DNA of 33,813 nt, taken from Alphaproteobacteria bacterium (lineage in GTDB: Bacteria > Pseudomonadota > Alphaproteobacteria > Holosporales > JBOFFI01). The notes under the pieces were generated by a model, which did not search any database, was not told the origin of the DNA, and worked only from the letters and a program-made list of their open reading frames with translations. Shown here piece by piece: positions 3,627-33,813 of the stretch. Location of the stretch: assembly GCA_051657225.1 (NCBI GenBank), contig JBOFKH010000134.1, forward strand, positions 1 through 33,813, read 5' to 3'. Each line of letters opens with the position of its first letter. Position 1 is the stretch's first letter. The position numbers were made by a program, and so were the translations under genes.

Positions 3627-3842
3627 CTATGATTTCAGCGTTGCCCATCGCTCAATTCCCCCCACCATTGGATCTGCCGGGTCTAAGATTTCTTCCCATT
3701 TTACCGTTTTACTCCCTTCTCCGGGAAGTCTAACGCGGTAATTTGCCCCTTCCTTCCCCTGGAAGACTGCGATCGTATCTGCACCTCTATGGTATGTCCA
3801 GGGGGTGCCGTCTTTGTCGAGCCGGAAAAGCGATCGGTTCAT
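3627..3842 (-). CDS. Hypothetical protein (71 aa)
   Basis: ORF with a 4-nt overlap with the upstream gene (3839-3842). Confidence 0.5.
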   Translation of the reverse strand: MNRSLFRLDKDGTPWTYHRGADTIAVFQGKEGANYRVRLPGEGSKTVKWEEILDPADPMVGGIERWATLKS

Positions 3843-4165
3843 CCCACCACCCCCGCAAATACTTCAGCCATCTGTTGAAACCATTGCTTGAGTTGGGCTA
3901 GGGCTTGATCAATAGAGAGTCCAGATGATAAAGTCGCAAAAAGCTGAAGTCTCGACAGATCACCAATAGTCACTGATGCCATAGATATTTCATCGCACAG
4001 CACCACATCAACAATGATAGGAAATCCATGGCGATCGCTAGCGGCTGGGGGAACAGATATTCTTGATGTAAATCGCTGAATCTTTCCTTCTTGTCCATGA
4101 ACTTCCCACTTCAGAGAAGGGAAAATAGCTTTTATTTTCTCTTCTGGAGTTAATTTAATACCCAT
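3839..4165 (-). CDS. Hypothetical protein; distant paralog of 9166..9471
   Basis: 108 aa. Shares 'FPxLxW..G', 'P..IVV' and 'QAL...F.Q...AG..G' with the 101-aa ORF at 9166..9471. TAATG overlap with the RusA-like gene. Confidence 0.6.
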   Translation of the reverse strand: MGIKLTPEEKIKAIFPSLKWEVHGQEGKIQRFTSRISVPPAASDRHGFPIIVDVVLCDEISMASVTIGDLSRLQLFATLSSGLSIDQALAQLKQWFQQMAEVFAGVVG

Positions 4166-4545
4166 TATGAAATTTCTACCTCCACACGAGGATTAATTTG
4201 ATCGTAGTGCAAGGGCGGCTCCACCGCTCCTACGCAGTATTTATCGTTCACGAATAAAGCATCCTCGATCGCCTTCAGAACGTTAGAAGGGTCGGGGTGC
4301 GCTCTATTCTTAAAGAAAATGCGAATCACCAGAATAGTTTCCTGCCCCTGCGCAGTGGTCAATGGCTTTGGATGTCCCCAGTTCCCTGGCACCTGCGCTA
4401 GAAATGCGTTCACAGCGTCCGCTTTATAGTTTTGATACCGTTGGTACTTGTCGCACCACTTCGAGGCTTGGGTGGTGCGTGTGTAACCGATGGGGGTGAC
4501 GAGGATTGTGAATGCGATCGTGGGGGTGGCGAGGATGGGGGTCAT
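4165..4545 (-). CDS. rusA: RusA-like Holliday-junction resolvase
   Basis: 126 aa from the ATG at 4545, which forms an ATGA overlap with the RNase H gene. 'TRTTQASKW...YQRYQNYK' and 'PDPSNVLKAIEDALFVNDKY' resemble the RusA 'DxDNxxKxxxDAL...D' core. The second Asp position is Ser here. Confidence 0.55.
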   Translation of the reverse strand: MTPILATPTIAFTILVTPIGYTRTTQASKWCDKYQRYQNYKADAVNAFLAQVPGNWGHPKPLTTAQGQETILVIRIFFKNRAHPDPSNVLKAIEDALFVNDKYCVGAVEPPLHYDQINPRVEVEIS

Positions 4546-10921: not shown

Positions 10922-11986
10922 CTACTCCAATCCTGGCGGCATTGTTGGCTCCGGCGCAAAATCCTGTTTCAGGCGATCGCACGCTTCCTCAACATTTTCA
11001 ACCGTCACGCCACCTGGATAATGCTTTGTAACCCATGCCGACACATCCGCAGGCTTGAGCTTCAATTGCTTAACCACCTCCCGCATAAACTCTTTCGGGT
11101 CAACCGCTCCCCCCTCATCAACCACTTCAACCTCAACGGCTTCTTCCGATTCCGATGCTGGCAGCGCCGGGGCAGAATGATGGGGCAGTTGCTTCATCTC
11201 TGGCGCGGGCAGAAGTTCCATATCCTTTCGGGTGAGAAAGAACTGTGCGCCGGATGAGAGGGTGCGATCGCTTGAATAAATACTGCGCATCAACTCAGCG
11301 TGATACTCAGGGGCAAAATCTAGTCCAACCATCCACTTGGTTTCCATTTTTCGCTTCCCAGGAAGCCGCTCAAATTTTCCATTTTGTTTAGCAAATGCCG
11401 GAACGGATATTTCGTCCTTGACGCGCCTGAGCACCAGCTGCACCCCGCGCATCGAATTGAGCCCTGCCGCCCGCACCAACGCCTCTATATTGTCGAGTGC
11501 GCCGCGCACTGCATTGAGGTCATTAGGGCTTTTGATCTCCAGGGTGACAGTCGATGTGTACCCTGCCAGGAAAAATTCTTTGATCGCAAAACTCAGTCGT
11601 CCCACCGCTTTGCATTCACAGGGGCTCTCTGCATTCCGGCGACAGGGCATCCGATTGAAGTTATAGGCCAGATCTTCCTCCCCATAGCTCTGGACAATCT
11701 CCTGCCCATTGCAGCGATAAACCAACCGCTGCCCGTCAGCCCATTGTTCATACCAATCATCAAAATTATCTTCGATCGTGTGCCCCAGGAGCCAGATGTT
11801 GACCTCCCGTGGCTCCTCACCGTAAAACTCTTTGAATATCCTGTCCAAGAATGGGTAGCGATCGTCTGGGGCAAATCGCCAGTGGTCAAGATCTTTCAAT
11901 TGTCCCTTCGGCGCACCCTTCTTTAGCTTCCCGAGGGAAGGCGGGCGACGAGTTAATGCCCCTGTTGTTTTATCTTGAATGATCAT
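10922..11986 (-). CDS. phiC31 gp3-like (recombination-directionality-factor-like) protein
   Basis: 354 aa. 'GKLKKGAPKG..LDHWRF', 'WYEQWADGQRLVYRCNG', 'CECKAVGRLSF' and 'TLEIKSPND' follow the gp3-like RDF family pattern as I recall it. The C-terminal third is acidic and low-complexity. Confidence 0.5.
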   Translation of the reverse strand: MIIQDKTTGALTRRPPSLGKLKKGAPKGQLKDLDHWRFAPDDRYPFLDRIFKEFYGEEPREVNIWLLGHTIEDNFDDWYEQWADGQRLVYRCNGQEIVQSYGEEDLAYNFNRMPCRRNAESPCECKAVGRLSFAIKEFFLAGYTSTVTLEIKSPNDLNAVRGALDNIEALVRAAGLNSMRGVQLVLRRVKDEISVPAFAKQNGKFERLPGKRKMETKWMVGLDFAPEYHAELMRSIYSSDRTLSSGAQFFLTRKDMELLPAPEMKQLPHHSAPALPASESEEAVEVEVVDEGGAVDPKEFMREVVKQLKLKPADVSAWVTKHYPGGVTVENVEEACDRLKQDFAPEPTMPPGLE

Positions 11987-13964: not shown

Positions 13965-14819
13965 ATGGAAAGCGTTAAATTGTTGCAGAATATAAACGAT
14001 CGCCCCGTTGAGGTGGGGTACTGGTTGGATCGTCTGGGGGAGAAAGTGCGATCGCGGGCATCAGAGATCACCTGGAAAAAGGATTATTACTATGCCCTGT
14101 ATCACTTGCCGCAGAAAGCCCCATTGACGATTGACTTGTTATATGGGGCGATCATGGCTACTGCCCCTCACAGCAAGCCCCGGCGACGGCTGGTAAATGC
14201 ATCCAAGGCGATCGCCAAGTTAGCTGGCCTGGACATTACTGCCTTGGAGGGGTTGGGGGGCAGCTATGGAATTAACCATGTGACTCCTCGGGACTTGCCT
14301 GGGGAAGGGAAAATTTTGGAATGCTGGGGTGCGATCGCCAATCAAAAGGGGCGCTGGGCGTATGGGATGATGGCGACCTTTGGGGTGCGCCCGCATGAAG
14401 TTTTCCAGTGCGATCGGGATGAATTCTTGAGGAATCCTGAGTATCTCTATATTTACAAAGACACCAAAACTGGACGAAAAACGGGCGGCAGAACAACCCG
14501 CGCAATTCATCCAGAATGGGTGAAGGAATTTAGTCTAATGGATATTCCTGATGGGTTTGGGTCTAGGGCGTCGGACAATAGCGGGAAAGGCCATAATGTT
14601 AGCCGATGGTTTCGGCTTTCAAGCGTGCCGTTTGAGCCTTATAATCTGCGGCACGCTTGGGCGGTGCGGTGTTTGTTGCTGGGTATTCCTGATGTGGTGG
14701 CTGCACAAATGATGGGACACTCGATCGCCCATCACCAGCAGATTTACTTGCACTGGATCCGGCAGCGGGATATTAATCGGGTTGTGGATGAGGCTTTGGC
14801 TCGGCGGGTGGAGTGTTGA
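13965..14819 (+). CDS. int: Tyrosine site-specific recombinase (phage integrase)
   Basis: 284 aa. 'LRHAWAVR' (HxxR) and 'GHSIAHHQQIYLHW' (catalytic Tyr region). Confidence 0.85.
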   Translation: MESVKLLQNINDRPVEVGYWLDRLGEKVRSRASEITWKKDYYYALYHLPQKAPLTIDLLYGAIMATAPHSKPRRRLVNASKAIAKLAGLDITALEGLGGSYGINHVTPRDLPGEGKILECWGAIANQKGRWAYGMMATFGVRPHEVFQCDRDEFLRNPEYLYIYKDTKTGRKTGGRTTRAIHPEWVKEFSLMDIPDGFGSRASDNSGKGHNVSRWFRLSSVPFEPYNLRHAWAVRCLLLGIPDVVAAQMMGHSIAHHQQIYLHWIRQRDINRVVDEALARRVEC

Positions 14820-14829
14820 GTTCGACACG

Positions 14830-15000
14830 AGCTTGCTCATATGAACTACCCCCTGTCACCTTGAGGCGACAGGGGGTTTCTGACGTTTCACTTGGGACAG
14901 TTGCTTGAATCCTCCAGTATTGACTGGGGAAGAAAGTAGAGCTGACCCATCGACGCCTGTAGAGGACAGTTCCTGCCCCCTTGCCCAAATCAAATTGACT
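14830..15000 (-). ncRNA. Predicted omega RNA of tnpB copy 3; extent approximate
   Basis: Inferred from family biology, supported by the hairpin at 14849-14876. Confidence 0.3.
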
Positions 15001-16121
15001 TGAGCAGCATTTACATCCCTGTCTTCATTGTGTCCACAAGCGGTATTGCTGCATTGATGGATACGGTCAGATAGAGTTTTCGGAGTCAATTCCCAACACA
15101 CCGCACACCGCTGGGTGGGCTTGAGTGTTCGAGTCGGTGATTCCACATAAAAACCACCAGCTTCAGCAGCTTTATAGGCAAACATTTTAGAGAGACTGGA
15201 CATTCCCACTTCCAGGATGGAGCGGTTCAGTCCAGTCTTTTGACGTTTGCGTTTAGAGCCTTTTTTGGCTTTACGTGTCATGTTTTTGACTGATAGTTTC
15301 TCGCCAGAGATCAGGCTATTACGGCTCACTGTATCACTGGCTAATTTGTGCATCCAATCTAGTCTCTGTCTGCCCACCTTCCGGCGAAGCTTAGAGATCT
15401 GACGCTGCACTTTTTTGAATCGCCTGGATGCCTTGATTTTATTGTTCCGGTTCGGTGCCCGTTTCCGGCGTAATTGCTTAGAAGCAAGTTTGACCGCACG
15501 TTCCCCTTCGGAGATAAAAACAGGTTTAGAAACCTGCAATCCATCCGAGAACGTCACCGCTTCCTTGCACCCAAGGTCTAGACCAATGGCTCCTTCACCA
15601 GTCGTCCGAGCGGGAATACATTGAACAGTAATAGAGGCATACCACTTACCATGACGATAAACAATCGTACAGGTTGTAGGCGTTCCCCAGGTTCGAGCTT
15701 CGCCGCGCATTTGAATGCGTCCCACATTGGACAATTGCAAAGACCCGTTCTTGCCTGCGGTTTCCACCTTCCAGCCTGATGAAGCAGGATAGGTCCATCC
15801 AGAATAATTCCGAATAGACTTGAAACGCGGATAACCCCGCAAGCCCTTGAAGAAGGACGAAAAAGCAAGGTCTACCCGTTTGAGAGTAGCTTGCAATGCC
15901 TGAGAACCCAGACCAACAAACTCAGGCCATACCTTCTTGAACTCAGGCAGCCTGTTTTGTTGGTCAAAGTACCCAATCGATTTACCCAACTTCTGATAAC
16001 TATCCTTGCGGTCTGCCACTGCACTGTTATAAAGCGTGCAATGTAACCGTCTCATCTCAAAAAGCTTGGCTGCTTGAGACTTATTAGGATAGAGCCGAAA
16101 GGTAATACGTCGTGTTAGCAT
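14856..16121 (-). CDS. tnpB: TnpB-like RNA-guided endonuclease
   Basis: 421 aa from 'MLTRRITFRLYPNKSQ'. 'GLDLGCKEAVT', 'GEKLSVKNM', 'CAVC...CSNTACGH' and 'EDRDVNAAQVN'. Confidence 0.9.
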   Translation of the reverse strand: MLTRRITFRLYPNKSQAAKLFEMRRLHCTLYNSAVADRKDSYQKLGKSIGYFDQQNRLPEFKKVWPEFVGLGSQALQATLKRVDLAFSSFFKGLRGYPRFKSIRNYSGWTYPASSGWKVETAGKNGSLQLSNVGRIQMRGEARTWGTPTTCTIVYRHGKWYASITVQCIPARTTGEGAIGLDLGCKEAVTFSDGLQVSKPVFISEGERAVKLASKQLRRKRAPNRNNKIKASRRFKKVQRQISKLRRKVGRQRLDWMHKLASDTVSRNSLISGEKLSVKNMTRKAKKGSKRKRQKTGLNRSILEVGMSSLSKMFAYKAAEAGGFYVESPTRTLKPTQRCAVCWELTPKTLSDRIHQCSNTACGHNEDRDVNAAQVNLIWARGQELSSTGVDGSALLSSPVNTGGFKQLSQVKRQKPPVASR

Positions 16122-16149
16122 GGTCTCATTATAGCTCACCTGCACAAAT

Positions 16150-16578
16150 ATGCAATACCCATTACATAAAGCCAATCATTCTGTATATGCTATCCACCTA
16201 CATGTCTACTTAGTGACTAAATATAGACGTAAGTTTTTGAGCGAACCGATTGCGAAGAGAGTCCATGAACTTTGCCAAGGAATCTGTCAAGGGAAAAAGT
16301 GTGAAATACTGGAGTCAGGATGCGAGTTAGACCACATTCACTTTTTGATAGATCTTCATCCAGACAATAATATTTCGATATTGATCAAGAGCATGAAGTC
16401 AGTTACAGCACAAATGATTCTGAAAGAGTTCCCAACTGAATTTAGAAAGACTTATAAAGGTGGTACTTCACTTTGGGGCAGACAAAAGGGCATTATTTCC
16501 TGTGGTGGTGCCCCGCTTGAAACTGTCAAAAAATATATTGCAGGACATTCGGATTCTCTTTCATCCCCCAGTGTCTAA
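16150..16578 (+). CDS. tnpA: IS200/IS605 Y1 (HUH) transposase TnpA
   Basis: 142 aa. 'LVTKYRRKFL', HUH 'DHIHFLI' and 'SCGGAPLETVKKYI'. The Tyr in the C-terminal helix is retained. Confidence 0.85.
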   Translation: MQYPLHKANHSVYAIHLHVYLVTKYRRKFLSEPIAKRVHELCQGICQGKKCEILESGCELDHIHFLIDLHPDNNISILIKSMKSVTAQMILKEFPTEFRKTYKGGTSLWGRQKGIISCGGAPLETVKKYIAGHSDSLSSPSV

Positions 16579-16600
16579 GGCCACATGGGGGATTTCCCGC

Positions 16601-16798
16601 TCAGTTGGTTAAATCTGGCTCTCTCAATACAAGGTCAGGAATTACCCTTGCATGGACTCCGTTCAGAATAGAATCCACAGGATCGCGCGACTCAAACTCG
16701 CCACAGTTTCCACAATCGCCAGTTGGATTAACCGTGCATTGAAGATGTGGCGATCGGGCATTGAAGCGACAGTTTACGTTTCCGATGTAATTAGGCAT
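16601..16798 (-). CDS. Small Cys-rich protein
   Basis: 65 aa. 'CRFNARSPHLQCTVNPTGDCGNCGEF' is a motif type common in cyanobacterial small proteins. Its 3' end abuts the IS605 left end. Confidence 0.5.
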   Translation of the reverse strand: MPNYIGNVNCRFNARSPHLQCTVNPTGDCGNCGEFESRDPVDSILNGVHARVIPDLVLREPDLTN

Positions 16799-17033
16799 TA
16801 TTTTTACTCCTGAACAAAATTTTTTTTGTTGTAGCTAGGCAAGCATCTTCAAAGGAGTAATCAAGCTCTATATATGACCTAAACATATTCTCGGCGGCAT
16901 TAATTGAGGTTTTATTTGCCAAAGATGAGTCGAGAGTTGCATGCAGAAGGTCGATCCAAACTTGTTCTGTTCCTTGCCCAGAGTTGATCTTGTCTGTTAA
17001 TTTTTGAATGTCGGGATTGATATTCATAACCAT
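16791..17033 (-). CDS. Hypothetical protein (80 aa)
   Basis: ORF overlapping the next gene by 8 nt. Confidence 0.45.
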   Translation of the reverse strand: MVMNINPDIQKLTDKINSGQGTEQVWIDLLHATLDSSLANKTSINAAENMFRSYIELDYSFEDACLATTKKILFRSKNNA

Positions 17034-17051
17034 TGTTAAAACCTCCAGAAA

Positions 17052-17762
17052 CTACAATTCAGCGCCCCAACTTGTCCATCTATCCCGATCGCGTCTTGCA
17101 AATAACTCAATGCGATCGCCCCCCAATGCATCCCCAATCCGCTCCGCCCGCGCATAGAATTCCTTAGGCTTCACCGAATGCGGCCCCAGAGGAGATGGAA
17201 ACGATGTCGGAATGTCACACAGCCCCATTGCGGTAAAACTTGGAGCTTTTCCCCTGCGACAGACCAGAAAGTGCTCTGTGCAGTTTCGCCCATAATGCCC
17301 CACCCCATACCTGATTTTATCGCCTGCCTTGGTCATCTTTACCCAAGTGTGCAGAGATTTGTACTCAAACCCCCATGCTTTGACCACATCGAAGGCCACA
17401 GGCAGATGGTTGTTTGTTGTCCAGAGCAGCAGATACGCATCTTTTGCCGCGATCGCCTCCACCCCCATATCCATGATCTCCTGGTTACTCATAGGCGGGT
17501 ATGGGCAACGTCCCCGATGAGTGCGATCGCTTTCCCTCAGGTGATAACTCCAGGGTGGATCCGCAACGATCAGCGAGAATTTGCCAGTGGGCAGAGGAGG
17601 GAGGTTGGGGATGATAGAAGAAGCGATCGCAGCTTTGGTTTGGCCGCGATCGTCCTCTGAATGATAGTCAATCAATGGACACCCCTCTAACTCTTTGCCC
17701 AACCATTGGGCGAGGCATTCCGCCAAACCACTCACCTTCCTCGTAGCCTTTCTCTTCAGCAT
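17052..17762 (-). CDS. MT-A70-family N6-adenine DNA methyltransferase
   Basis: 236 aa with the 'LIVADPPWSY' catalytic motif. The start is uncertain (see finding). Confidence 0.8.
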   Translation of the reverse strand: MLKRKATRKVSGLAECLAQWLGKELEGCPLIDYHSEDDRGQTKAAIASSIIPNLPPLPTGKFSLIVADPPWSYHLRESDRTHRGRCPYPPMSNQEIMDMGVEAIAAKDAYLLLWTTNNHLPVAFDVVKAWGFEYKSLHTWVKMTKAGDKIRYGVGHYGRNCTEHFLVCRRGKAPSFTAMGLCDIPTSFPSPLGPHSVKPKEFYARAERIGDALGGDRIELFARRDRDRWTSWGAEL

Positions 17763-18538: not shown

Positions 18539-19654
18539 CTACCAATATCGTAGCGCATTCAATAACTCAGAAATCCATTGATTAGTGGTTGGGTTGTAAG
18601 CTCCAAAGCCTTTATGGGCTTCCCAGTAAGCCCAGCCAATTCCCCGCGCTTCTGCCGCTTTGCGGACATGAGATGTCCATCGACTACGAGCACCGACATT
18701 CCCACAGATTCCATATGTTCCGAACTCACCTTGAAATAGTGGGACTTGGCGCTGATTCGCCCATGTCACCGCCGTATCGAGCTTTGCATTAATCGCGTTC
18801 TTCTCGGCTACGGTTCCCGCCCAGTTTGTACTACAAGGAGGCACCGGAGAGGTCCACGTCGCGCCACGATGACTAAAATCGAACGGATCGTAAAAATGAT
18901 ACGCTACGGCTAGATTCGTATCGTTTGGTAGGGTCAGATTGACCAACTGGTTGATATTTCCCCAGCGCACTGGAGTAGTCATAATCAATCGACTGGGGTT
19001 GGTTTTACGAATCTCCGCGATCGCCTTACTCTGCATCTGATTCCAGAGTCCAGGATTGGCATTAAACTCCCCTTTTGGTTCATTTAAGACCTCAAATATT
19101 AGATCGGATGGCTCATTGCGATATGCAGTAGCAATCTGTTTCCAAATTGCCAAGAAACGCGCCTCTTGCCCCGATGGGTCAGTCATAATCTCTTCGTAGG
19201 CATGGACATTGATGATGACCTTGAACCCACGCTTACGAGCTTCTGAGATCACCCAGTTAATCTTTCCCCAGGTCAGGGTGGGATTGATTGTGTAGGGTGC
19301 AGTCGTCCCGGCATGCTTATCCCAGTCGATTGGCAGGCGAACGGCATTAAACCCTTCTGCTTTATATCGATCGAATACCTCGCGCACTAATGCACCGTCT
19401 TCAGCAAAGGTAGGAGTCTCGAAATAGCTGAAATTGAAGCCTTTGATACCAGCCAAGACTGCTTGATTACGTGCCTTGCGCAGCGATCGCAGTTTCAATC
19501 GTTTGACTGGCTTTTGATTCCGGGGAACCATTGTCCCGCGTGGAGCAATCTCTCGGAAATCGGATTGCGATCGCTTGGGACGAGCATCAGTGGGGAAAGA
19601 AAACCCTCCTATAGCGATTGTGGCAAGGAGGGCAGAAATAAATCGGTTTGACAT
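18539..19654 (-). CDS. Secreted glycoside hydrolase family 5 (cellulase-type)
   Basis: 371 aa with an N-terminal signal-like segment. 'FNAVRLPIDW', 'INVHAYEE', 'FEVLNEP', 'YHFYDPFDFSH' and 'FQGEFG' are GH5 hallmarks. Confidence 0.85.
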   Translation of the reverse strand: MSNRFISALLATIAIGGFSFPTDARPKRSQSDFREIAPRGTMVPRNQKPVKRLKLRSLRKARNQAVLAGIKGFNFSYFETPTFAEDGALVREVFDRYKAEGFNAVRLPIDWDKHAGTTAPYTINPTLTWGKINWVISEARKRGFKVIINVHAYEEIMTDPSGQEARFLAIWKQIATAYRNEPSDLIFEVLNEPKGEFNANPGLWNQMQSKAIAEIRKTNPSRLIMTTPVRWGNINQLVNLTLPNDTNLAVAYHFYDPFDFSHRGATWTSPVPPCSTNWAGTVAEKNAINAKLDTAVTWANQRQVPLFQGEFGTYGICGNVGARSRWTSHVRKAAEARGIGWAYWEAHKGFGAYNPTTNQWISELLNALRYW

Positions 19655-28016: not shown

Positions 28017-30554
28017 CTAATCCTCCCCAGTCCCCCAATCAACGAGAGGATCGATCGCATCCAGTGGCAGATCATCCAACATCTGAGCATAATCCTGCTC
28101 ACTGAGCACATCATCCTCAGCATCCGATCGCGGCAGGTCTGGAATATCCCCCGTAACTGGAGTCTTCACCATCCAGGGCTGGGGTTGATAACTGGGAATC
28201 ATCTCCATGGGAATCTCCTCGATGCCCCCAAAGTGCTCAGGGGTCATAATGGCCTGGTAAAGTTTAGCAATTTCCTCAGGGGTACGATCGCAGCCTACAA
28301 AGAATTTCACTTCATCAAATTCACCAGTCTTGCGATCGAGTTGAGTGATAGCAAACACCCGACGCGACGATAGGTCTGGCCCCACATAGACATCGATGTT
28401 CATCGCATCGTGTTCAGAGATGATGCCCAGGAACTCCCCATATCCAACGGGGAGGATTTTCCCATGGCGTTCATCCATGGGTTGGTATTGGAGGCCAATC
28501 TGGTAATTGTGGAATGCGATCGCTTTTTTGATAGGGGTGTCGTCGTCGGCACGCGGAGCTTCTTCCGAATCAACAACGATCGGATCTTTAATGCTTACAT
28601 TATCAGGTGAGGGAATGCTTGCACTGTCTAACTGTTCGATCTCCTTCACCATCTGTTCAACCCAGACTTGCCCCGCTGCCCCCCCACGGCATAGATAGGC
28701 AATGAATTCATAGGATGGATGCTTAGGATTATCCCCATCCGGCGGAATCCTCATCAGGTCATTCTGCTGCTTGATGAAAAATACAGCATTGCGCGGGATT
28801 TGTTGCCCATAGGCCATGTGTCGGGCAAAGAACACCGACTGCATGATATTGGGTTTCCCAGGGGAGCCATATTGCTTGAAGAGGTCGAGTCCTTTCCGGG
28901 CGATCGCCTGCACCTGTAATGGAGGCCAGAACCCTTCTGTTTTAGGAGTAAACGGATCATCCGAGTCCGTCACCTCTTTAGCTCCTGGCAATGCCTTCTT
29001 AGGTTGCTGCCCTGGCAGAGCCCTTTGTTTTGGTTGTCCAGGGAGTAAAGGCTGCTCCATTCCCGGCAATAATCCCATCTGGATTGCTAATTTATCCGCC
29101 TCCGCCTGTTGCTTCTCCTGTTCCGCCTTAAGCTTCTCGCGTTCCTTCCAATTGATCGTAATCTCAGGGTTATACTCTGACCCCGAGTAATGGGACTTGG
29201 CCGCTTCCTCTCCGGTGTAGGCTCCGATCGAAGAATTGATCTGGTCGATTTGCGATCGCATTAATTCCAGCTCAGCCTGCTCAACCGGCGTAACCGGATA
29301 AAGCTCCTGCCATTTCCATTCCCATTTGTCCGGCTCTTTTCCCTGGGTTGGCCCATCCTTGCAGGCAAAGACCAGCTTGAGGAAATCGTACATATTGGAA
29401 TCTAGCTTAGATTCCTGGTACATCCGGGTGCGGTTATTTGCATTCTCCTGTTCAACCTTATCTGTAGCAGAAAGCCCTTTGGACATCTCATTGAATAGTT
29501 CTGACTTAGTGAGATCAGTATTGGCCTGGAGGTCAAGGACGAGGCGATCGAGCAATGAATCATACCCACTTACATTCCGGGTGCTGTGGACGATATCCTC
29601 ATCCTCAAGGTCAATAAGCATCGATCGCCAGATAGAGCGGCAGATATTGTTGATCTGCGCGCGTTCCATCATCTTTTGTTGATATTGTCCTGACGGATCG
29701 TTATCTATTCTGGCAAGTAGTCCCGAAACCTTGTGCACAACCACGTCAAAATCAACAATCATCCGCCCTGCACCACGGATGGCCTGGAAATATTCCTGGA
29801 ATGATTGCTGAATCCCCTGGAGCACTGAGTCATCGCAGCCTTCGTTTTCTAGAAGAGTGCGATCGCTCAACTCCTCACCCCGAAACCAGAGAACCCGCGA
29901 TCGATGGATGCGAATCCGTCCTAAATCTCCACCGCGCAACTGGATGATTTTGTTAAACCGGGAATCATTGAGCCAGAAATACTCAGCCATTTCCAGGTTG
30001 GCATAGATGCCACTGATGTCCGGTTGGATTGACCAGCGATCGGCTAGAAATAACCCCTCAATAGACCTGAGATTATTGGAGTTGATAGGGCGATCGAAAT
30101 TCTGCCCATCCTTGGCCAGGATAACAAGTGCTGCATTCCCGGTCTGGAAAGCCATTTTAATGGCCTGATTAAACGCCCGCTTCAATCCCTTGTATCGATT
30201 CACCAGGGATTTTGTGTTGAGGTTATCCAGCCAGGTATGCACATCATTGATGATGTCGGGGGCACCATCATCCCCGCCGAGAGTGAGGTTGCCCCAGCGG
30301 TAAGTCATCTGGTTGGGGATAGTCTCGATGATTTTGCGGATGAATTTATGACTCCGCATCAATCGGTCTTGTTGCCCGCGATCGAGGGGTATCACTCCCG
30401 TCCCCATATCCGCGTGCCGGGATGGGTCGTACATGGGCATTCCCATCCCCGTGGCATAGTTCATTGCCCCGATTGTTCCACCTGCCGCCAGAGTTCTCAA
30501 TGCAGCTAAATCATCGGTGCGGGTGGTATTGGAGGGGAGAATCAGGTCTGTCAT
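28017..30554 (-). CDS. Phage portal protein fused to two C-terminal accessory domains
   Basis: 845 aa. The N-terminal roughly 480 aa look portal-like (DUF1073-type, 'DRWSIQPD...IRIHRSRVLWFRGEEL'). A Pro/Gln linker follows. Next comes an 'ARKGLDLFKQYG...FFARH...YLCRGGAAGQVW' domain. Last is a pyrophosphatase-like 'YGEFLGIISEHDAMNIDVYVGPD...FAITQLDRKTGEFDEVKFFVGC' domain. Confidence 0.75.
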   Translation of the reverse strand: MTDLILPSNTTRTDDLAALRTLAAGGTIGAMNYATGMGMPMYDPSRHADMGTGVIPLDRGQQDRLMRSHKFIRKIIETIPNQMTYRWGNLTLGGDDGAPDIINDVHTWLDNLNTKSLVNRYKGLKRAFNQAIKMAFQTGNAALVILAKDGQNFDRPINSNNLRSIEGLFLADRWSIQPDISGIYANLEMAEYFWLNDSRFNKIIQLRGGDLGRIRIHRSRVLWFRGEELSDRTLLENEGCDDSVLQGIQQSFQEYFQAIRGAGRMIVDFDVVVHKVSGLLARIDNDPSGQYQQKMMERAQINNICRSIWRSMLIDLEDEDIVHSTRNVSGYDSLLDRLVLDLQANTDLTKSELFNEMSKGLSATDKVEQENANNRTRMYQESKLDSNMYDFLKLVFACKDGPTQGKEPDKWEWKWQELYPVTPVEQAELELMRSQIDQINSSIGAYTGEEAAKSHYSGSEYNPEITINWKEREKLKAEQEKQQAEADKLAIQMGLLPGMEQPLLPGQPKQRALPGQQPKKALPGAKEVTDSDDPFTPKTEGFWPPLQVQAIARKGLDLFKQYGSPGKPNIMQSVFFARHMAYGQQIPRNAVFFIKQQNDLMRIPPDGDNPKHPSYEFIAYLCRGGAAGQVWVEQMVKEIEQLDSASIPSPDNVSIKDPIVVDSEEAPRADDDTPIKKAIAFHNYQIGLQYQPMDERHGKILPVGYGEFLGIISEHDAMNIDVYVGPDLSSRRVFAITQLDRKTGEFDEVKFFVGCDRTPEEIAKLYQAIMTPEHFGGIEEIPMEMIPSYQPQPWMVKTPVTGDIPDLPRSDAEDDVLSEQDYAQMLDDLPLDAIDPLVDWGTGED

Positions 30555-30674: not shown

Positions 30675-31088
30675 ATGTCAACGAAAGAAATCCAAACAAA
30701 TCACAGGACAGTCACTGACCACAAGATTGGAGGAATTGATAATTCCCTAGACGTTACAGTCTTGGATGAACCTGGGGCAGGCGGTGCGTGCCATGAGTAT
30801 GTTATTTCCTATCTCTCAGACCCCGATGAGCACGGCAATTGCTTTGGGATGCAATTATGCAAAATCAGTTTTCAGAATGGGCCAGTCAAGGAACATGGAG
30901 TCAATGGAATCACCCAGGAATCGCTAATCGCAATCTGCATTGATCGATTGCGCTGTTTTCAAGCAGGTGAATATGCTTGCGAGGACAATCAAGCCGCATT
31001 AATGAATTTAGAATTGGCCTTGGAATTGTTGCAGAAACGAACCCGCGATCGCCTATCCAGAGGGGTTGAAGGAACGTCTGCCCATTGA
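30675..31088 (+). CDS. Conserved phage protein of unknown function
   Basis: 137 aa. 'ISFQNGPVKEHGVNGITQESLIAICIDRLRCFQAGEYACEDNQAALMNLELALELLQKRTRDRLSRGVEGT' is a motif set I recognise from many phage hypothetical proteins. Confidence 0.6.
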   Translation: MSTKEIQTNHRTVTDHKIGGIDNSLDVTVLDEPGAGGACHEYVISYLSDPDEHGNCFGMQLCKISFQNGPVKEHGVNGITQESLIAICIDRLRCFQAGEYACEDNQAALMNLELALELLQKRTRDRLSRGVEGTSAH

Positions 31089-31125
31089 CATCCTCCCCGG
31101 CGTAAACGCACGGGGATTCTAAGAA

Positions 31126-31203
31126 TCACTTCCTAGACCTTTCTGCTTCTTCGCAACTGCCATCAGACTTATGTCTATCCGGTCTTACGTTCGCTCCAAG
31201 ACG
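31126..31203 (-). pseudogene. tnpB: tnpB 3'-terminal fragment
   Basis: The frame reads 'RLGANVRPDRHKSDGSCEEAERSRK*'. The stop at 31126-31128 lies 10 nt from the hairpin. 'TGAttcttaGAATCCCCGTGC' parallels copy 2 'TGAgtcctGAATCCCACGTGC'. Confidence 0.5.
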
Positions 31204-31237
31204 CTATAATATCAAGATAGCACTTTGGAGCTTTTTG

Positions 31238-31717
31238 ATGAAAAAAATTTACACAGCAAAAGGAGAGTCAATTGATGTTGACGATGATTTGTACGAAAGT
31301 CTTAATAAGTTTAAATGGCACATTCATCAAGGGTATGCGTGTCGATCTGCTAAAGTTGAAAATGGCAGCAGAAAAATCAGAATGCATAGAGAGGTTCTTG
31401 GCCTAGGCTGGGGGAAGCAAGGAAGTAACGCTAAAGTCGTTGACCATATTGACAGAAACAAGCTCAACAACACTAGGGAAAATCTCAGGATCGTCACTAA
31501 GCAAGAAAATGAATGGAACCGGCATGCATATTCAAGCAGCACAACAGGGTATCCTGGAGTGCGCTTTAGAAAAGATTCGCCTGATAACCCTTTTCAATCT
31601 GTTATCAAGGTTAACGGGGTTGATAAATGCTTAGGATCTTTCCCAAGTGCGGAGAAAGCATACATTGCCTATCTGGAAGCAAAGATTTTTTACCACTTGA
31701 AAAGATTGGTAAATTAA
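31238..31717 (+). CDS. HNH endonuclease with AP2 DNA-binding domain (free-standing homing endonuclease type)
   Basis: 159 aa. 'VDHIDRNKLNNTRENLRIVTKQEN' (HNH_3) is followed by 'YPGVRFRKDSPDNPFQSVIKVNGVDKCLGSFPSAEKAYIAY' (AP2). A GGAG RBS and TATAAT at 31205-31210 lie upstream. Confidence 0.85.
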   Translation: MKKIYTAKGESIDVDDDLYESLNKFKWHIHQGYACRSAKVENGSRKIRMHREVLGLGWGKQGSNAKVVDHIDRNKLNNTRENLRIVTKQENEWNRHAYSSSTTGYPGVRFRKDSPDNPFQSVIKVNGVDKCLGSFPSAEKAYIAYLEAKIFYHLKRLVN

Positions 31718-31800
31718 CGAGTGCAGCCCATCGTCCGTCTCAGCAAGGTTTCTTGCTCAGGCGTGGGATAGAAGCGGTACTTGAAAGATTTCTGCGTCAT
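31714..31800 (-). pseudogene. tnpB: tnpB 5'-terminal fragment (28 codons)
   Basis: Hand translation MTQKSFKYRFYPTPEQETLLRRTMGCTR* is the canonical TnpB N-terminus. It is preceded by 'gctataatgtgagac', as in copy 3. Confidence 0.65.
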
Positions 31801-31889
31801 GTCTCACATTATAGCACTTATTTTGTGAGTCGCGTTTATTTCGATGTAAAGCCGTCCTAAAAGGACGGGGTTTCCACCCACAATTTCCG

Positions 31890-32429
31890 ATGACCAACAT
31901 CCGCGACTTACTTACCGATCCAGAGATAGGCTTGCTGCCCTATCTGGAAAACATCCTGGAACAAAACTTTCATCGTTTCCAACTGCGCCGCTATTTCCCT
32001 GGAGAAAGGCCAGAGCCCACAGCGGAAGAACTCGAAGAAATGATTCGGGCAGATTCTGTTCCGAGATACGAAACAGCAGGTTTCCGCCTGCGCGATGGGA
32101 AGACCAAAAATCTAGACAACTCTCTTAAAATTTCCTCGATTATTACGATCGGTAAAGTTCTGACCGTTAAAGACCAGGTGGAGAGTCAGATTATTGGGGA
32201 AGAGATTCGGGTTTGCATCGACCAGGCGATCGCGGAATGGTCGCGGTGTGTGGGGCCAGTGGATATTGTTGAGGACATTGATGGGGCTCCATATATCGAG
32301 CAAGATCCGAATCAGGATTCCGGGAATGAAGGAGCCTGGTCAATCTATATTGTTCGGGAATTCACTTTGACCTACGATCGGGGTCATCACGAAGGGTTTC
32401 CGAATTATGATGTTGTGGGCGTGACCTGA
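31890..32429 (+). CDS. Hypothetical structural-module protein (179 aa)
   Basis: ORF coupled (ATGA-type overlap at 32429) to the next gene. Confidence 0.5.
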   Translation: MTNIRDLLTDPEIGLLPYLENILEQNFHRFQLRRYFPGERPEPTAEELEEMIRADSVPRYETAGFRLRDGKTKNLDNSLKISSIITIGKVLTVKDQVESQIIGEEIRVCIDQAIAEWSRCVGPVDIVEDIDGAPYIEQDPNQDSGNEGAWSIYIVREFTLTYDRGHHEGFPNYDVVGVT

Positions 32430-33419: not shown

Positions 33420-33813
33420 AGAAGCCCCGTAGCTTCAGGGCGGGGAGGGATAGGAGCGTCGGATTAGGGAGTCGATACCCCGCAGTTCGACACTCTTTTG
33501 TATAGTATTGCACATTTTCTCACTTAGTGACATACTATGTTCATGGAACAAACTCTTACTATAGTTGTCAAGCTTCAACCAACCCCTGAACAGTCTCTTA
33601 AAATTGAGGAGACGCTTCAAGGGTTTGGGAAAGCTTGCAACCATGTAAATCAAAAGGTTGACCCAAAAATAACCAACAAGAATACGATTCAAACTCTTGT
33701 CTATCAAGAAATTCGTGCGTTGTTTGGTCTGAGTGCCAATCTTGCTGTTCGTGTTTGTGCCAGAGTTGCTGCAAATCGTAAAGTGGCAAAGTTGAAAAAG
33801 AAGTCTGTTAAAA
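33420..33813 (+). mobile_element. IS200/IS605-family tnpB element, copy 4 (left end and 5' part only)
   Basis: The LE hairpin ccccg-tagcttcaggg-cgggg (about 33425-33445) is near-identical in design to the copy 1 LE (cccag-cggcttcagcc-ctggg on the minus strand). Confidence 0.65.
33537..33813 (+). CDS. tnpB: TnpB-like protein, N-terminal 92 codons (runs off window; absent from ORF track)
   Basis: Hand translation MFMEQTLTIVVKLQPTPEQSLKIEETLQGFGKACNHVNQKVDPKITNKNTIQTLVYQEIRALFGLSANLAVRVCARVAANRKVAKLKKKSVK aligns with the copy 1 N-terminus (MSQIISVSCKLQVPVKVRQEIDETLQRFADGCNQI...). Confidence 0.75.
   Translation, partial: MFMEQTLTIVVKLQPTPEQSLKIEETLQGFGKACNHVNQKVDPKITNKNTIQTLVYQEIRALFGLSANLAVRVCARVAANRKVAKLKKKSVK

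Follow-up and report, generated by a model that had tools for sequence, protein, structure and literature searches.

An HNH-AP2 endonuclease gene in place of tnpB within a recurrent IS200/IS605-type shell

A tnpB shell enclosing an HNH gene

The DNA stretch studied here (hereafter, the window) is the 33,813-nt contig JBOFKH010000134.1 of assembly GCA_051657225.1, catalogued as an Alphaproteobacteria bacterium. An interval of 800 bp between its plus-strand open reading frames (ORFs) 30675-31088 (phrog_2428, unknown function) and 31890-32429 holds an HNH endonuclease gene, enclosed by the remnants of an oppositely oriented tnpB gene and by the left end (LE) and right end (RE) of an insertion sequence (IS) of the IS200/IS605 type. 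The original prediction had offered two interpretations of this arrangement, namely a homing endonuclease gene (HEG) that invaded tnpB, and IS ends that now carry an HNH cargo. Alignment to intact elements and homology searches revealed that LE-HNH-RE is a discrete recurrent unit present in several phage-like contexts, and the segment 31085-31889 of the window is very probably a member of this composite family. Its parts are listed below, L088 being an intact 1.3-kb element of Microcoleus sp. herbarium19.

31085..31889, minus strand: whole composite element (805 bp), RE to LE of an IS200/IS605 (IS1341-type, tnpB-only) shell carrying the HNH cassette
31890..31893, minus strand: transposon-adjacent motif (TAM) or target tetranucleotide TCAT (ATGA on the plus strand), corresponding to the T[C/T]AT found 5' of the LE in intact members and HNH units
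31801..31889, minus strand: LE, with linker CGGAAATTGTGGGTG and hairpin CCGTCC-TTTTA-GGACGG (31852-31868), in a block 95% identical to L088
31808-31813, minus strand: −10-like box TATAAT of tnpB, inside the LE
31714..31800, minus strand: tnpB 5' stub of 28 codons (MTQKSFKYRFYPTPEQETLLRRTMGCTR), set by a PF12323 match and the L088 alignment
31203..31717, plus strand: HNH cassette in place of 1010 bp of tnpB, with TATAAT at 31205-31210, GGAG at 31227-31230 and the ORF at 31238-31717 (159 aa)
31085..31202, minus strand: tnpB tail and RE (118 nt), 95% identical to L088, comprising 24 codons of tnpB and its stop (31126-31200), a middle hairpin, the bulged hairpin of the RE (31095-31115) and terminal GGAGGATGTCAA
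31065..31084, minus strand: 3' flank of the RE as read on the tnpB strand, TGGGCAGACGTTCCTTCAAC, located by the element boundary

Scanning of one genome per GTDB species with both peptide fragments yielded 80 cyanobacterial tnpB loci, which span Microcoleus, Nostoc, Pseudanabaena, Tychonema, Phormidesmis and others, and most of which encode a TnpB of 376-415 aa. Blastn placed both arms of the window element on L088: positions 31893..31716 (LE and tnpB stub) matched L088 1312-1488 with 94.9% identity over 178 nt (E=1e-75), and positions 31202..31085 (tail and RE) matched L088 2499-2617 with 95.0% identity over 119 nt (E=6e-48). The distance between these two homologous blocks is 1010 bp in L088 vs 513 bp in the window, as expected if, as first proposed, ~1 kb of the interior of a minus-oriented tnpB element had been replaced by an HNH ORF on the opposite strand. 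The junctions could be mapped to within a few bases, and whichever locus was aligned, homology broke off at the same two points, tnpB nt +85 and nt 1095/1096 counted from the ATG. The stub differs from L088 by 2 mismatches in 85 nt, and homology stops at tnpB nt +85.

The 28-codon ORF at 31714-31800(-) scored 49.6 bits against Pfam HTH_OrfB_IS605 (PF12323; E=2.8e-13), far above the cut-off of 21, and is therefore a genuine TnpB N-terminus, as it had been read, rather than a look-alike. Its stop codon overlaps that of the HNH gene (TTAA). The second minus-strand frame is the tnpB tail LGANVRPDRHKSDGSCEEAERSRK, which terminates at the stop codon 31126-31128 and is alike the end of the closest intact TnpBs (390 aa; ..VKVCGANVRPDRHKSDGSCYEAERSRK, then stop), in agreement with the proposed C-terminal remnant. 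All that is left of TnpB coding capacity is thus 28 N-terminal and 24 C-terminal codons, codons 29 to ~365 being gone.

Similarity of the window to the 80 cyanobacterial loci, and likewise to six further HNH units (see below), is confined to 31085-31889, the flanks outside being unrelated. The LE consensus of ~45 intact elements reads, on the tnpB strand, T[C/T]AT and then C[A/G][A/G]AAA..TGGGT..GAAACCCCGTCC-TTTTA-GGACGG, while their RE ends in ..GGAGGATGTCAA, with unrelated sequence beyond, as established by flank comparison across loci. Both hairpins predicted originally, that of the LE (31852-31868) and the bulged one of the RE (31095-31115), are conserved in this tnpB family; the likeness originally drawn to tnpB copies 1-3 of the window is generic, since those copies belong to other tnpB families and have no significant nucleotide similarity to the element. 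We also asked if the element could derive from the tnpB copies present in the window itself (16-1227, 1472-2596, 14856-16175 and 33543-end), and rejected this origin because these returned just 11-16-nt matches at chance level and unrelated N-termini.

The element is inserted between GCCCA/ and /ATGACC without target duplication. The downstream phage gene 31890-32429 starts with the ATG of the TAM (plus-strand ATGA, 31890-31893), and the RE terminus TTGA (31085-31088) provides the TGA stop (31086-31088) of the upstream gene 30675-31088. Neither phage ORF is therefore truncated, a consequence of the TAM being TCAT and the RE ending in TCAA. The reconstructed empty site, ..GCC CAA TGA CC.. (..ACGTCTGCCCAATGACCAAC..), would be a classical ATGA stop/start overlap of the two genes. 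The same stop/start arrangement occurs in one other HNH unit, L177 (489-492 and ~1199-1202), and the TAM ATG of another, L171 (1080-1083), is also a start codon. The TGGGCAGACGTTCCTTCAAC flank (31065..31084) overlaps the end of the phage gene 30675-31088; by analogy with the published mechanism of IS605 TnpB, this flank is where the guide of an omega RNA would originate.

Recurrence of the unit and histories of cassette and arms

The product of the ORF 31238-31717(+) matched Pfam HNH_3 (PF13392; E=4e-10) and the PHROG family phrog_99 'HNH endonuclease' (E=4e-31). Pfam AP2 (PF00847) was not called on the window protein itself; nonetheless, the HNH-AP2 name given to it originally is justified by an AP2 fold match and by the presence of PF00847 in relatives, those with 33-44% identity mostly carrying both PF13392 and PF00847. 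A profile of the clade described below recovered I-HmuI (PDB 1u3e) with residues 40-97 (E=7e-4) and the WRI1 AP2 domain (7wq5) with residues 98-155 (E=0.028). Similarly, Foldseek matched the AlphaFold2 model (mean pLDDT 77) to I-HmuI with probability 0.99 and its C-terminal part to the AP2 domain of AtERF1 with probability 1.0 (rmsd 1.6 Å, 51 columns, TM 0.65 on target). Residues D69, H70, N77, N78, N82, N91 and N94 are invariant in the clade alignment (motif VVDHIDxNKLNN..NLR), which also displays a conserved C-terminal segment (GYxGV...NPYQA.IK..G....LG.F.T.E.A..AYLEAK). The ratio dN/dS is 0.115 for L168/L176, the sole pair with unsaturated synonymous sites, while all other pairs combine saturated dS with dN of 0.15-0.47, indicating a functional HNH protein under purifying selection in old lineages.

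A search of 5.8 billion proteins retrieved nine other HNH clusters that are 57-75% identical to the window protein, identities among clade members being 55-82%. This clade is discrete, its ten clusters scoring 278-311 bits in the profile search and the next match 159 bits. Contigs were fetched for six of the other clusters (L168, L176, L169/170, L177/178, L171-175 and L179), and shell remnants of the same architecture were evident in 6/6 of them (7/7 with the window). The RE/tail arm starts exactly at the equivalent of window position 31085 (/TTGAC..) in the five lineages whose upstream region is available; of the shell, just an N-terminal stub and LE-like sequence can be seen in the L179 contig, which starts 35 nt upstream of its HNH gene. 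The LE hairpin and the ..A[T/A][G/A]A boundary were found in the window, L168, L176, L169 and L171, whereas in L177 the LE had no match to intact loci, and hairpin and boundary were read by eye.

The tail junction is shared by the units. In the six that have a tail it reads GTCTTGGAGC or a one-base variant, the corresponding GTCTGTGGAGC being present in 57/61 intact elements. The TATAAT box lies 0-2 nt from this junction in the window and five lineages (with 8 extra nt in L171), giving the pattern GCTCCAAGAC(N0-2)TATAAT; the promoter box originally assigned to the HNH gene (31205-31210) is thus the same in five relatives, but the accompanying GGAG ribosome-binding site, although present at 31227-31230, is not conserved among them. 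On the other side, the 5' junction varies, falling at tnpB nt ~+160 in L171, ~+119 to +128 in L168, +85 in the window and +51 in L179, and within the LE in L169 (−9) and L176 (−41). L176, L169 and L177 have lost the tnpB promoter region. In the window, where it is retained, the tnpB −10 box at 31808-31813(-) faces the HNH −10 box at 31205-31210(+), and any transcript from the former would be fully antisense to HNH ahead of the tail/RE block.

The six other units lie on metagenomic contigs. The genomic contexts of the units are unrelated to each other and at least two are clearly phage-like, with terminase/portal genes in L169, RecT in L168 and small ORFs elsewhere; the neighbor proteins of the window (portal, g30675, g31890 and others) had no matches in the other HNH loci. 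Composites were assembled independently from Joint Genome Institute (JGI) and Logan (SRA-run) data. One could imagine that a free-standing phage HEG had landed once in a dead tnpB copy, given that HNH-AP2 genes are common as free-standing phage HEGs and distant homologs were found in 561 phage records. Recurrence of the same composite and tail junction in six other lineages, with unrelated flanks and in independent assemblies, refutes such an accident, whose residual likelihood is negligible: decay of the tnpB shell is real, but the composite is a family found in seven lineages, not a single decayed copy. We likewise rejected on context the view of the HNH protein as a DNA-packaging accessory nuclease that merely resides near portal and terminase genes. 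The portal gene 28017-30554 is indeed 0.5 kb from the unit, and the L169 unit adjoins terminase genes, but the protein is of the HNH_3/AP2 homing type and enclosed by IS ends, and units elsewhere adjoin RecT or small ORFs with no conserved packaging linkage, which makes this explanation very improbable.

The association appears restricted to this clade in the data searched. No HNH gene occurs in the 80 cyanobacterial genomic tnpB loci, and no tnpB remnants were found near the HNH outgroups P0054 (44% identity) and Microcystis phage MaeS (38%) or at ~160 more distant IMG/VR and metagenome loci. A metagenome scan for further units returned only relatives with ≤45% identity and no tnpB remnants, the back-translated patterns being generic, and a junction-specific DNA pattern found nothing in IMG/VR. 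Intact members of the tnpB family, L262 and L263 (82% and 70% aa identity, respectively), do reside on viral contigs, so potential recipients of the cassette exist in phage gene pools.

We then compared the cassettes with the arms that enclose them. The tail peptides of the HNH units fall into three of the types known from intact elements: GANVRPDRHKSDGSC.EAERSRK in the window, GANIRPDR...GQLRKT..KKQK in L168, and GATVRPE[EQ]SKS.KAGA.KQK in L176, L169, L177 and L171. The tail/RE of each unit is 82-99% identical to that of some intact element vs 73-81% to that of any other HNH unit. In a neighbor-joining tree of 56 tails, the window grouped with clade A in 99/100 bootstraps, and the HNH units were monophyletic in 0/100. 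L168 and L176 are sisters by their HNH proteins (82% aa identity) and yet bear tails of different subfamilies; their identity is 75-91% along the cassette, ~70-80% in the LE and ~45% just beyond the invariant block at the tail start, which places the breakpoint inside the invariant block that adjoins the junction. Arms are much younger than cassette lineages, as the window stub is 2/85 nt from L088 while HNH dS is saturated. Collectively, these sequence comparisons show that cassette and arms have separate histories, and since the tail junction is common to all units despite their differing arm subfamilies, they point to a common origin of the junction followed by repeated arm exchange with resident tnpB elements. 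Each of the two initial interpretations is thus borne out in part, the former by cassettes with arms from at least three tnpB subfamilies and the latter by the recurrence of LE-HNH-RE with exact IS boundaries in unrelated contexts.

These same data could be accommodated by an alternative history in which a tnpB-deleted shell took up the HNH gene a single time, becoming a palindrome-associated transposable element (PATE) with a passenger, and was spread only by TnpA acting in trans, the nuclease being irrelevant to spread, either a passenger or useful to the phage, and the arms having become polyphyletic through gene conversion with resident IS copies. Exact IS boundaries and a TAM wherever contexts allowed locating them, the single tail junction in all units and the L168/L176 pair, which shares LE and cassette with a different RE arm, are in keeping with this proposal, as is a Y1 transposase gene within the window, though of another IS. 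An arm swap without its flank, however, needs two exchanges within ~120 nt, of which one falls at the tip of the element; the HNH protein is strongly conserved across a divergence that saturates synonymous sites; and within the clade it never occurs outside the shell, which is unexpected of a neutral passenger. We regard a pure cargo history as possible but doubtful.

Some further observations concern the tnpB family at large. Cyanobacterial assemblies contain many 31-90-aa ORFs annotated as 'helix-turn-helix domain-containing protein, partial', which are truncated N-termini of this family (P0001-P0025); some of these could conceal further cassettes or deletions. Candidate 'mini-TnpB' fusions of N- and C-terminal parts (94% query coverage) were discarded as ordinary truncated N-termini misaligned to the chimeric query, only P0026 truly matching the tail. 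A decayed family member with a 57-aa ORF in a metagenome-assembled genome of Phormidesmis (L093; 2907-2934 and 3001-3906) has its tail ~300 bp nearer the ATG than intact elements and an RE-type hairpin directly upstream of the LE, and may represent tandem or nested elements.

The retained 3' block

Third-codon-position entropy across 53 intact elements is high up to the ..AAGLAV codons and close to zero from GTCTGTGGAGCGAACGTAAGACC on. This point of collapse is the exact cassette junction, so that all 118 nt of the nucleotide-constrained block are preserved in the units. For 26 sequences, RNAalifold supported an RE hairpin and a middle hairpin with compensatory changes. The 3' sense-overlapping RNAs of IS1341-type tnpB genes are now named omega RNAs. 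Rfam returned nothing at gathering thresholds; at E-value thresholds, the only sensible match was the archaeal family HgcC (RF00062), on the correct strand, which scored 22.9 bits at 31178..31072 of the window and 28 bits at L088 2482-2630, both below the gathering score of 50. The alignment pairs CCCCG.GCGUUUACGCCGGGGAGGAUGUCA with the HgcC consensus, and the RE hairpin and GAGGAGGUCA terminus are common to HgcC and the cyanobacterial tnpB family. Gomes-Filho et al. (PMC4615843) linked HgcC to a PATE-derived RNA as well as to the sense-overlapping RNAs at the 3' side of IS1341-type tnpB. Rfam appears to have no model that captures omega-type RNAs such as these. A scan for sigma-70 promoters and terminators was uninformative, in that neither TATAAT met the −35 criterion and no terminators were called.

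An orphan omega-RNA-like module in the retained tail, as envisaged at the outset, is plausible from these features, yet the HgcC match and the constrained block are suggestive rather than proof because the same block holds the RE needed for transposition. One lead came from L169 (JGI contig Ga0556224_001149), whose 17-nt LE linker starts with TGGGGCATAATGGG, which repeats exactly the 14 nt beyond its RE; this copy, directly after the TAM, replaces 8 nt of the canonical linker (CAGAAAAAATGGG..), the repeats lying at 4516-4533 and 3837-3850 on the tnpB strand. This repeat may be a homing scar, although it is a single case in a locally repetitive flank: an empty site TCAT/TGGGGCATAATGGG/GG.. would have been broken ~15 nt from the TAM and repaired on the occupied allele via AATGGG microhomology. 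IS605 TnpB, as known from the ISDra2 system, cuts 15-21 nt from the TAM, so such a scar would fit a TnpB acting in trans with the unit's own RNA.

Taken further, the 118-nt omega-RNA scaffold itself would be the key function of the unit, a host TnpB of the same family, loaded with RNA made from the shell, homing the HNH unit restoratively and HNH being an add-on. The coincidence of the cassette junction with the start of the constrained block, the compensatory changes that keep the hairpins also in diverged units such as L168, the sub-threshold, right-strand match to an RNA family tied to IS1341 tnpB 3' RNAs (PMC4615843) and the flank copy in L169 all speak for this scenario. Against it, the conserved block also holds the RE, so that its conservation alone need not imply a role as RNA; L176, L169 and L177 lack the tnpB promoter region, no cognate tnpB is present in the window, the L169 scar is a single case, and the Rfam score lies below the gathering threshold. 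On balance, we consider a unit driven by its RNA scaffold improbable.

Possible mobility of the composite and its significance

The reading we favor, to which we assign a probability of about 0.55, is that of a composite, non-autonomous IS shell with a homing endonuclease that is mobilized in trans, and whose cassette has spread by converting intact tnpB copies. First, a Y1 TnpA provided in trans would mobilize the ends by single-strand peel-and-paste at T[C/T]AT sites. We infer mobilization in trans because the unit encodes no transposase while its LE and RE hairpins are intact and its boundaries exact; neither the unit nor the intact family members contain tnpA. A TnpA-made circle junction would read ..GATGTCAA/CGGAAATT.. 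(GATGTCAA/CGGAAATTGTGG), and the sealed donor GCCCA/ATGACC. Second, a site-specific nick or break made by HNH would drive copying of the cassette by recombinational repair, in analogy to free-standing phage HEGs and I-HmuI. Since cassettes occupy the family's most conserved sequence and occur in arms of several subfamilies, we favor as substrate intact tnpB genes from the same IS family, which would be cut in the invariant block or close to it, the IS arms serving as homology. Third, the tail would be kept as the RE and possibly as a guide-RNA scaffold usable by a host-encoded TnpB.

A number of points weigh against this reading. All three steps are inferred throughout. No Y1 TnpA with matching ends was found within the window, the Y1_Tnp gene at 16150-16578(+) (Pfam E=1.9e-31) being part of a different IS. 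The 5' junction varies among lineages, whereas two-sided homing would copy the donor junction, so that secondary deletions or one-sided repair must be invoked. Plain homing does not predict either that L168 and L176 share the LE but not the RE; nested insertion followed by deletion between conserved blocks could alternatively account for both this pair and the junction pattern. No element-free phage relative emerged from blastn against 50,697 phage records or from exact-protein matches; homologs of g30675 exist without synteny, and g31890 and the portal have no relatives in IMG/VR. Finally, the sample comprises seven lineages with usable flanks, mostly on short contigs, and the tail trees are built on ~115-nt alignments with low fine-scale support.

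A more specific form of the favored reading is that the HNH cassette is a hyperparasite of transposons, that is, a protein-only homing endonuclease with tnpB as its host gene, cutting where the omega-RNA scaffold begins; we put this forward tentatively and think it rather unlikely to hold in full. The RNA-guided nuclease would be destroyed and the ends kept, with or without the scaffold, leaving a converted element that could be moved by TnpA and homed by a host TnpB. If true, a mobile multicopy target would free HNH from the retargeting problem argued in PMC13565253 (section 6.3), and a phage-borne copy would also cut all matching IS copies in the host chromosome.

As for the surroundings of the element, the Y1 gene 16150-16578(+) lies divergently beside tnpB copy 3 (14856-16175(-)), both making up a complete IS605-type element whose end hairpin (~14850-14880) is unlike those of the HNH shell. 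A further tnpB-like gene, apparently starting at 33543(+) (MEQTLTIVVKLQPTPEQSLKIEETLQGFGKACNHV..), is cut off by the end of the window; by eye it resembles copy 1 (16-1227), Pfam gave no match on its 90-aa fragment, and an LE-type hairpin, GAAGCCCCGTAGCTTCAGGGCGGGGAGG, is located at 33420-33448. If this gene is tnpB, the 33.8-kb window contains four tnpB genes plus the HNH shell. The highly iterated palindrome HIP1 (GCGATCGC) occurs 64 times in the window vs 0.46 expected, and the three longest HIP1-free stretches (1-2796, 14339-17111 and 31053-32225) coincide with IS elements, which are therefore recent arrivals in a HIP1-rich, cyanobacterial-type genome; the absence of HIP1 from the region of the composite had been noted correctly. 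Genes 13965-14819, 17052-17762, 18539-19654 and 10922-11986 include a weak phage-integrase match that remains below the cut-off (Pfam E=5e-4, 20.3 bits vs 27.1), an MT-A70 methyltransferase, a GH5 cellulase and an RDF-like Gp3. The sequence that hosts the element is like a cyanophage genome, and the window may derive from a temperate phage or prophage rather than from a strictly lytic phage.

TnpB is currently understood as the transposon's own RNA-guided homing nuclease. The unit in the window joins an IS1341-type element to a free-standing HNH-AP2 HEG, and differs in this from each known system. With the IS1341-type cyanobacterial family (TnpB N-terminus MTQKAFKYRFYPTPEQETLLRRTMGC; L088) it shares 95% LE/RE identity, the T[C/T]AT target, terminal ..GATGTCAA, the subterminal hairpins and the 3' RNA-type block, but it lacks 1010 bp of tnpB including the RuvC nuclease, and thereby the RuvC-containing TnpB effector of an OMEGA system (short for obligate mobile element-guided activity), and has an unrelated nuclease gene on the other strand. 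PATEs, gene-less IS200/IS605 derivatives, likewise retain the cis-acting LE and RE and a 3' RNA module, lack transposase and TnpB, and need mobilization in trans; they are non-coding, unlike the window element with its selected 159-aa ORF and own promoter element. IStrons such as CdISt1 (PMC4227781; bioRxiv 10.1101/2023.11.20.567912) also combine an IS605-family shell with a second selfish element, but keep tnpB along with a group I intron, whereas here tnpB is replaced and no Rfam intron family was detected at gathering thresholds or E≤10. Free-standing HNH-AP2 HEGs of phages and bacteria (I-HmuI, PDB 1u3e) encode the same two-domain protein type, the present clade differing by its location inside IS200/IS605 ends in 7/7 lineages with usable flanks. 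KolobokP, a eukaryotic DNA transposon with a His-Me finger endonuclease (PMC13565253), resembles the unit in pairing a transposon with a protein-only beta-beta-alpha-metal nuclease, but it has its own DDE transposase and its nuclease did not replace an RNA-guided one. A 2026 review of OMEGA systems (PMC13565253) deems protein-only homing endonucleases almost impossible partners for transposons, since they are not retargeted after each hop, and cites only the eukaryotic KolobokP as a transposon with a relative of protein-type homing endonucleases. Full-text literature searches returned no description of an IS200/IS605 shell with an HNH HEG replacing tnpB, and the elements described here look like a small mobile-element lineage for which no earlier description was located.

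Annotation pipelines split such tnpB 'pseudogenes' into 'HTH domain protein, partial' and 'HNH endonuclease'. Being just ~800 bp long, the composite offers a cloneable system for asking what a nuclease adds to IS200/IS605 persistence, if selfish elements parasitize each other's nuclease genes, and if an omega-RNA scaffold can act in trans when its tnpB is missing. It represents a natural lineage in which the RNA-guided nuclease has been swapped for a protein-only HNH-AP2 enzyme, and which has persisted under selection and re-associated with the arms of several tnpB subfamilies.

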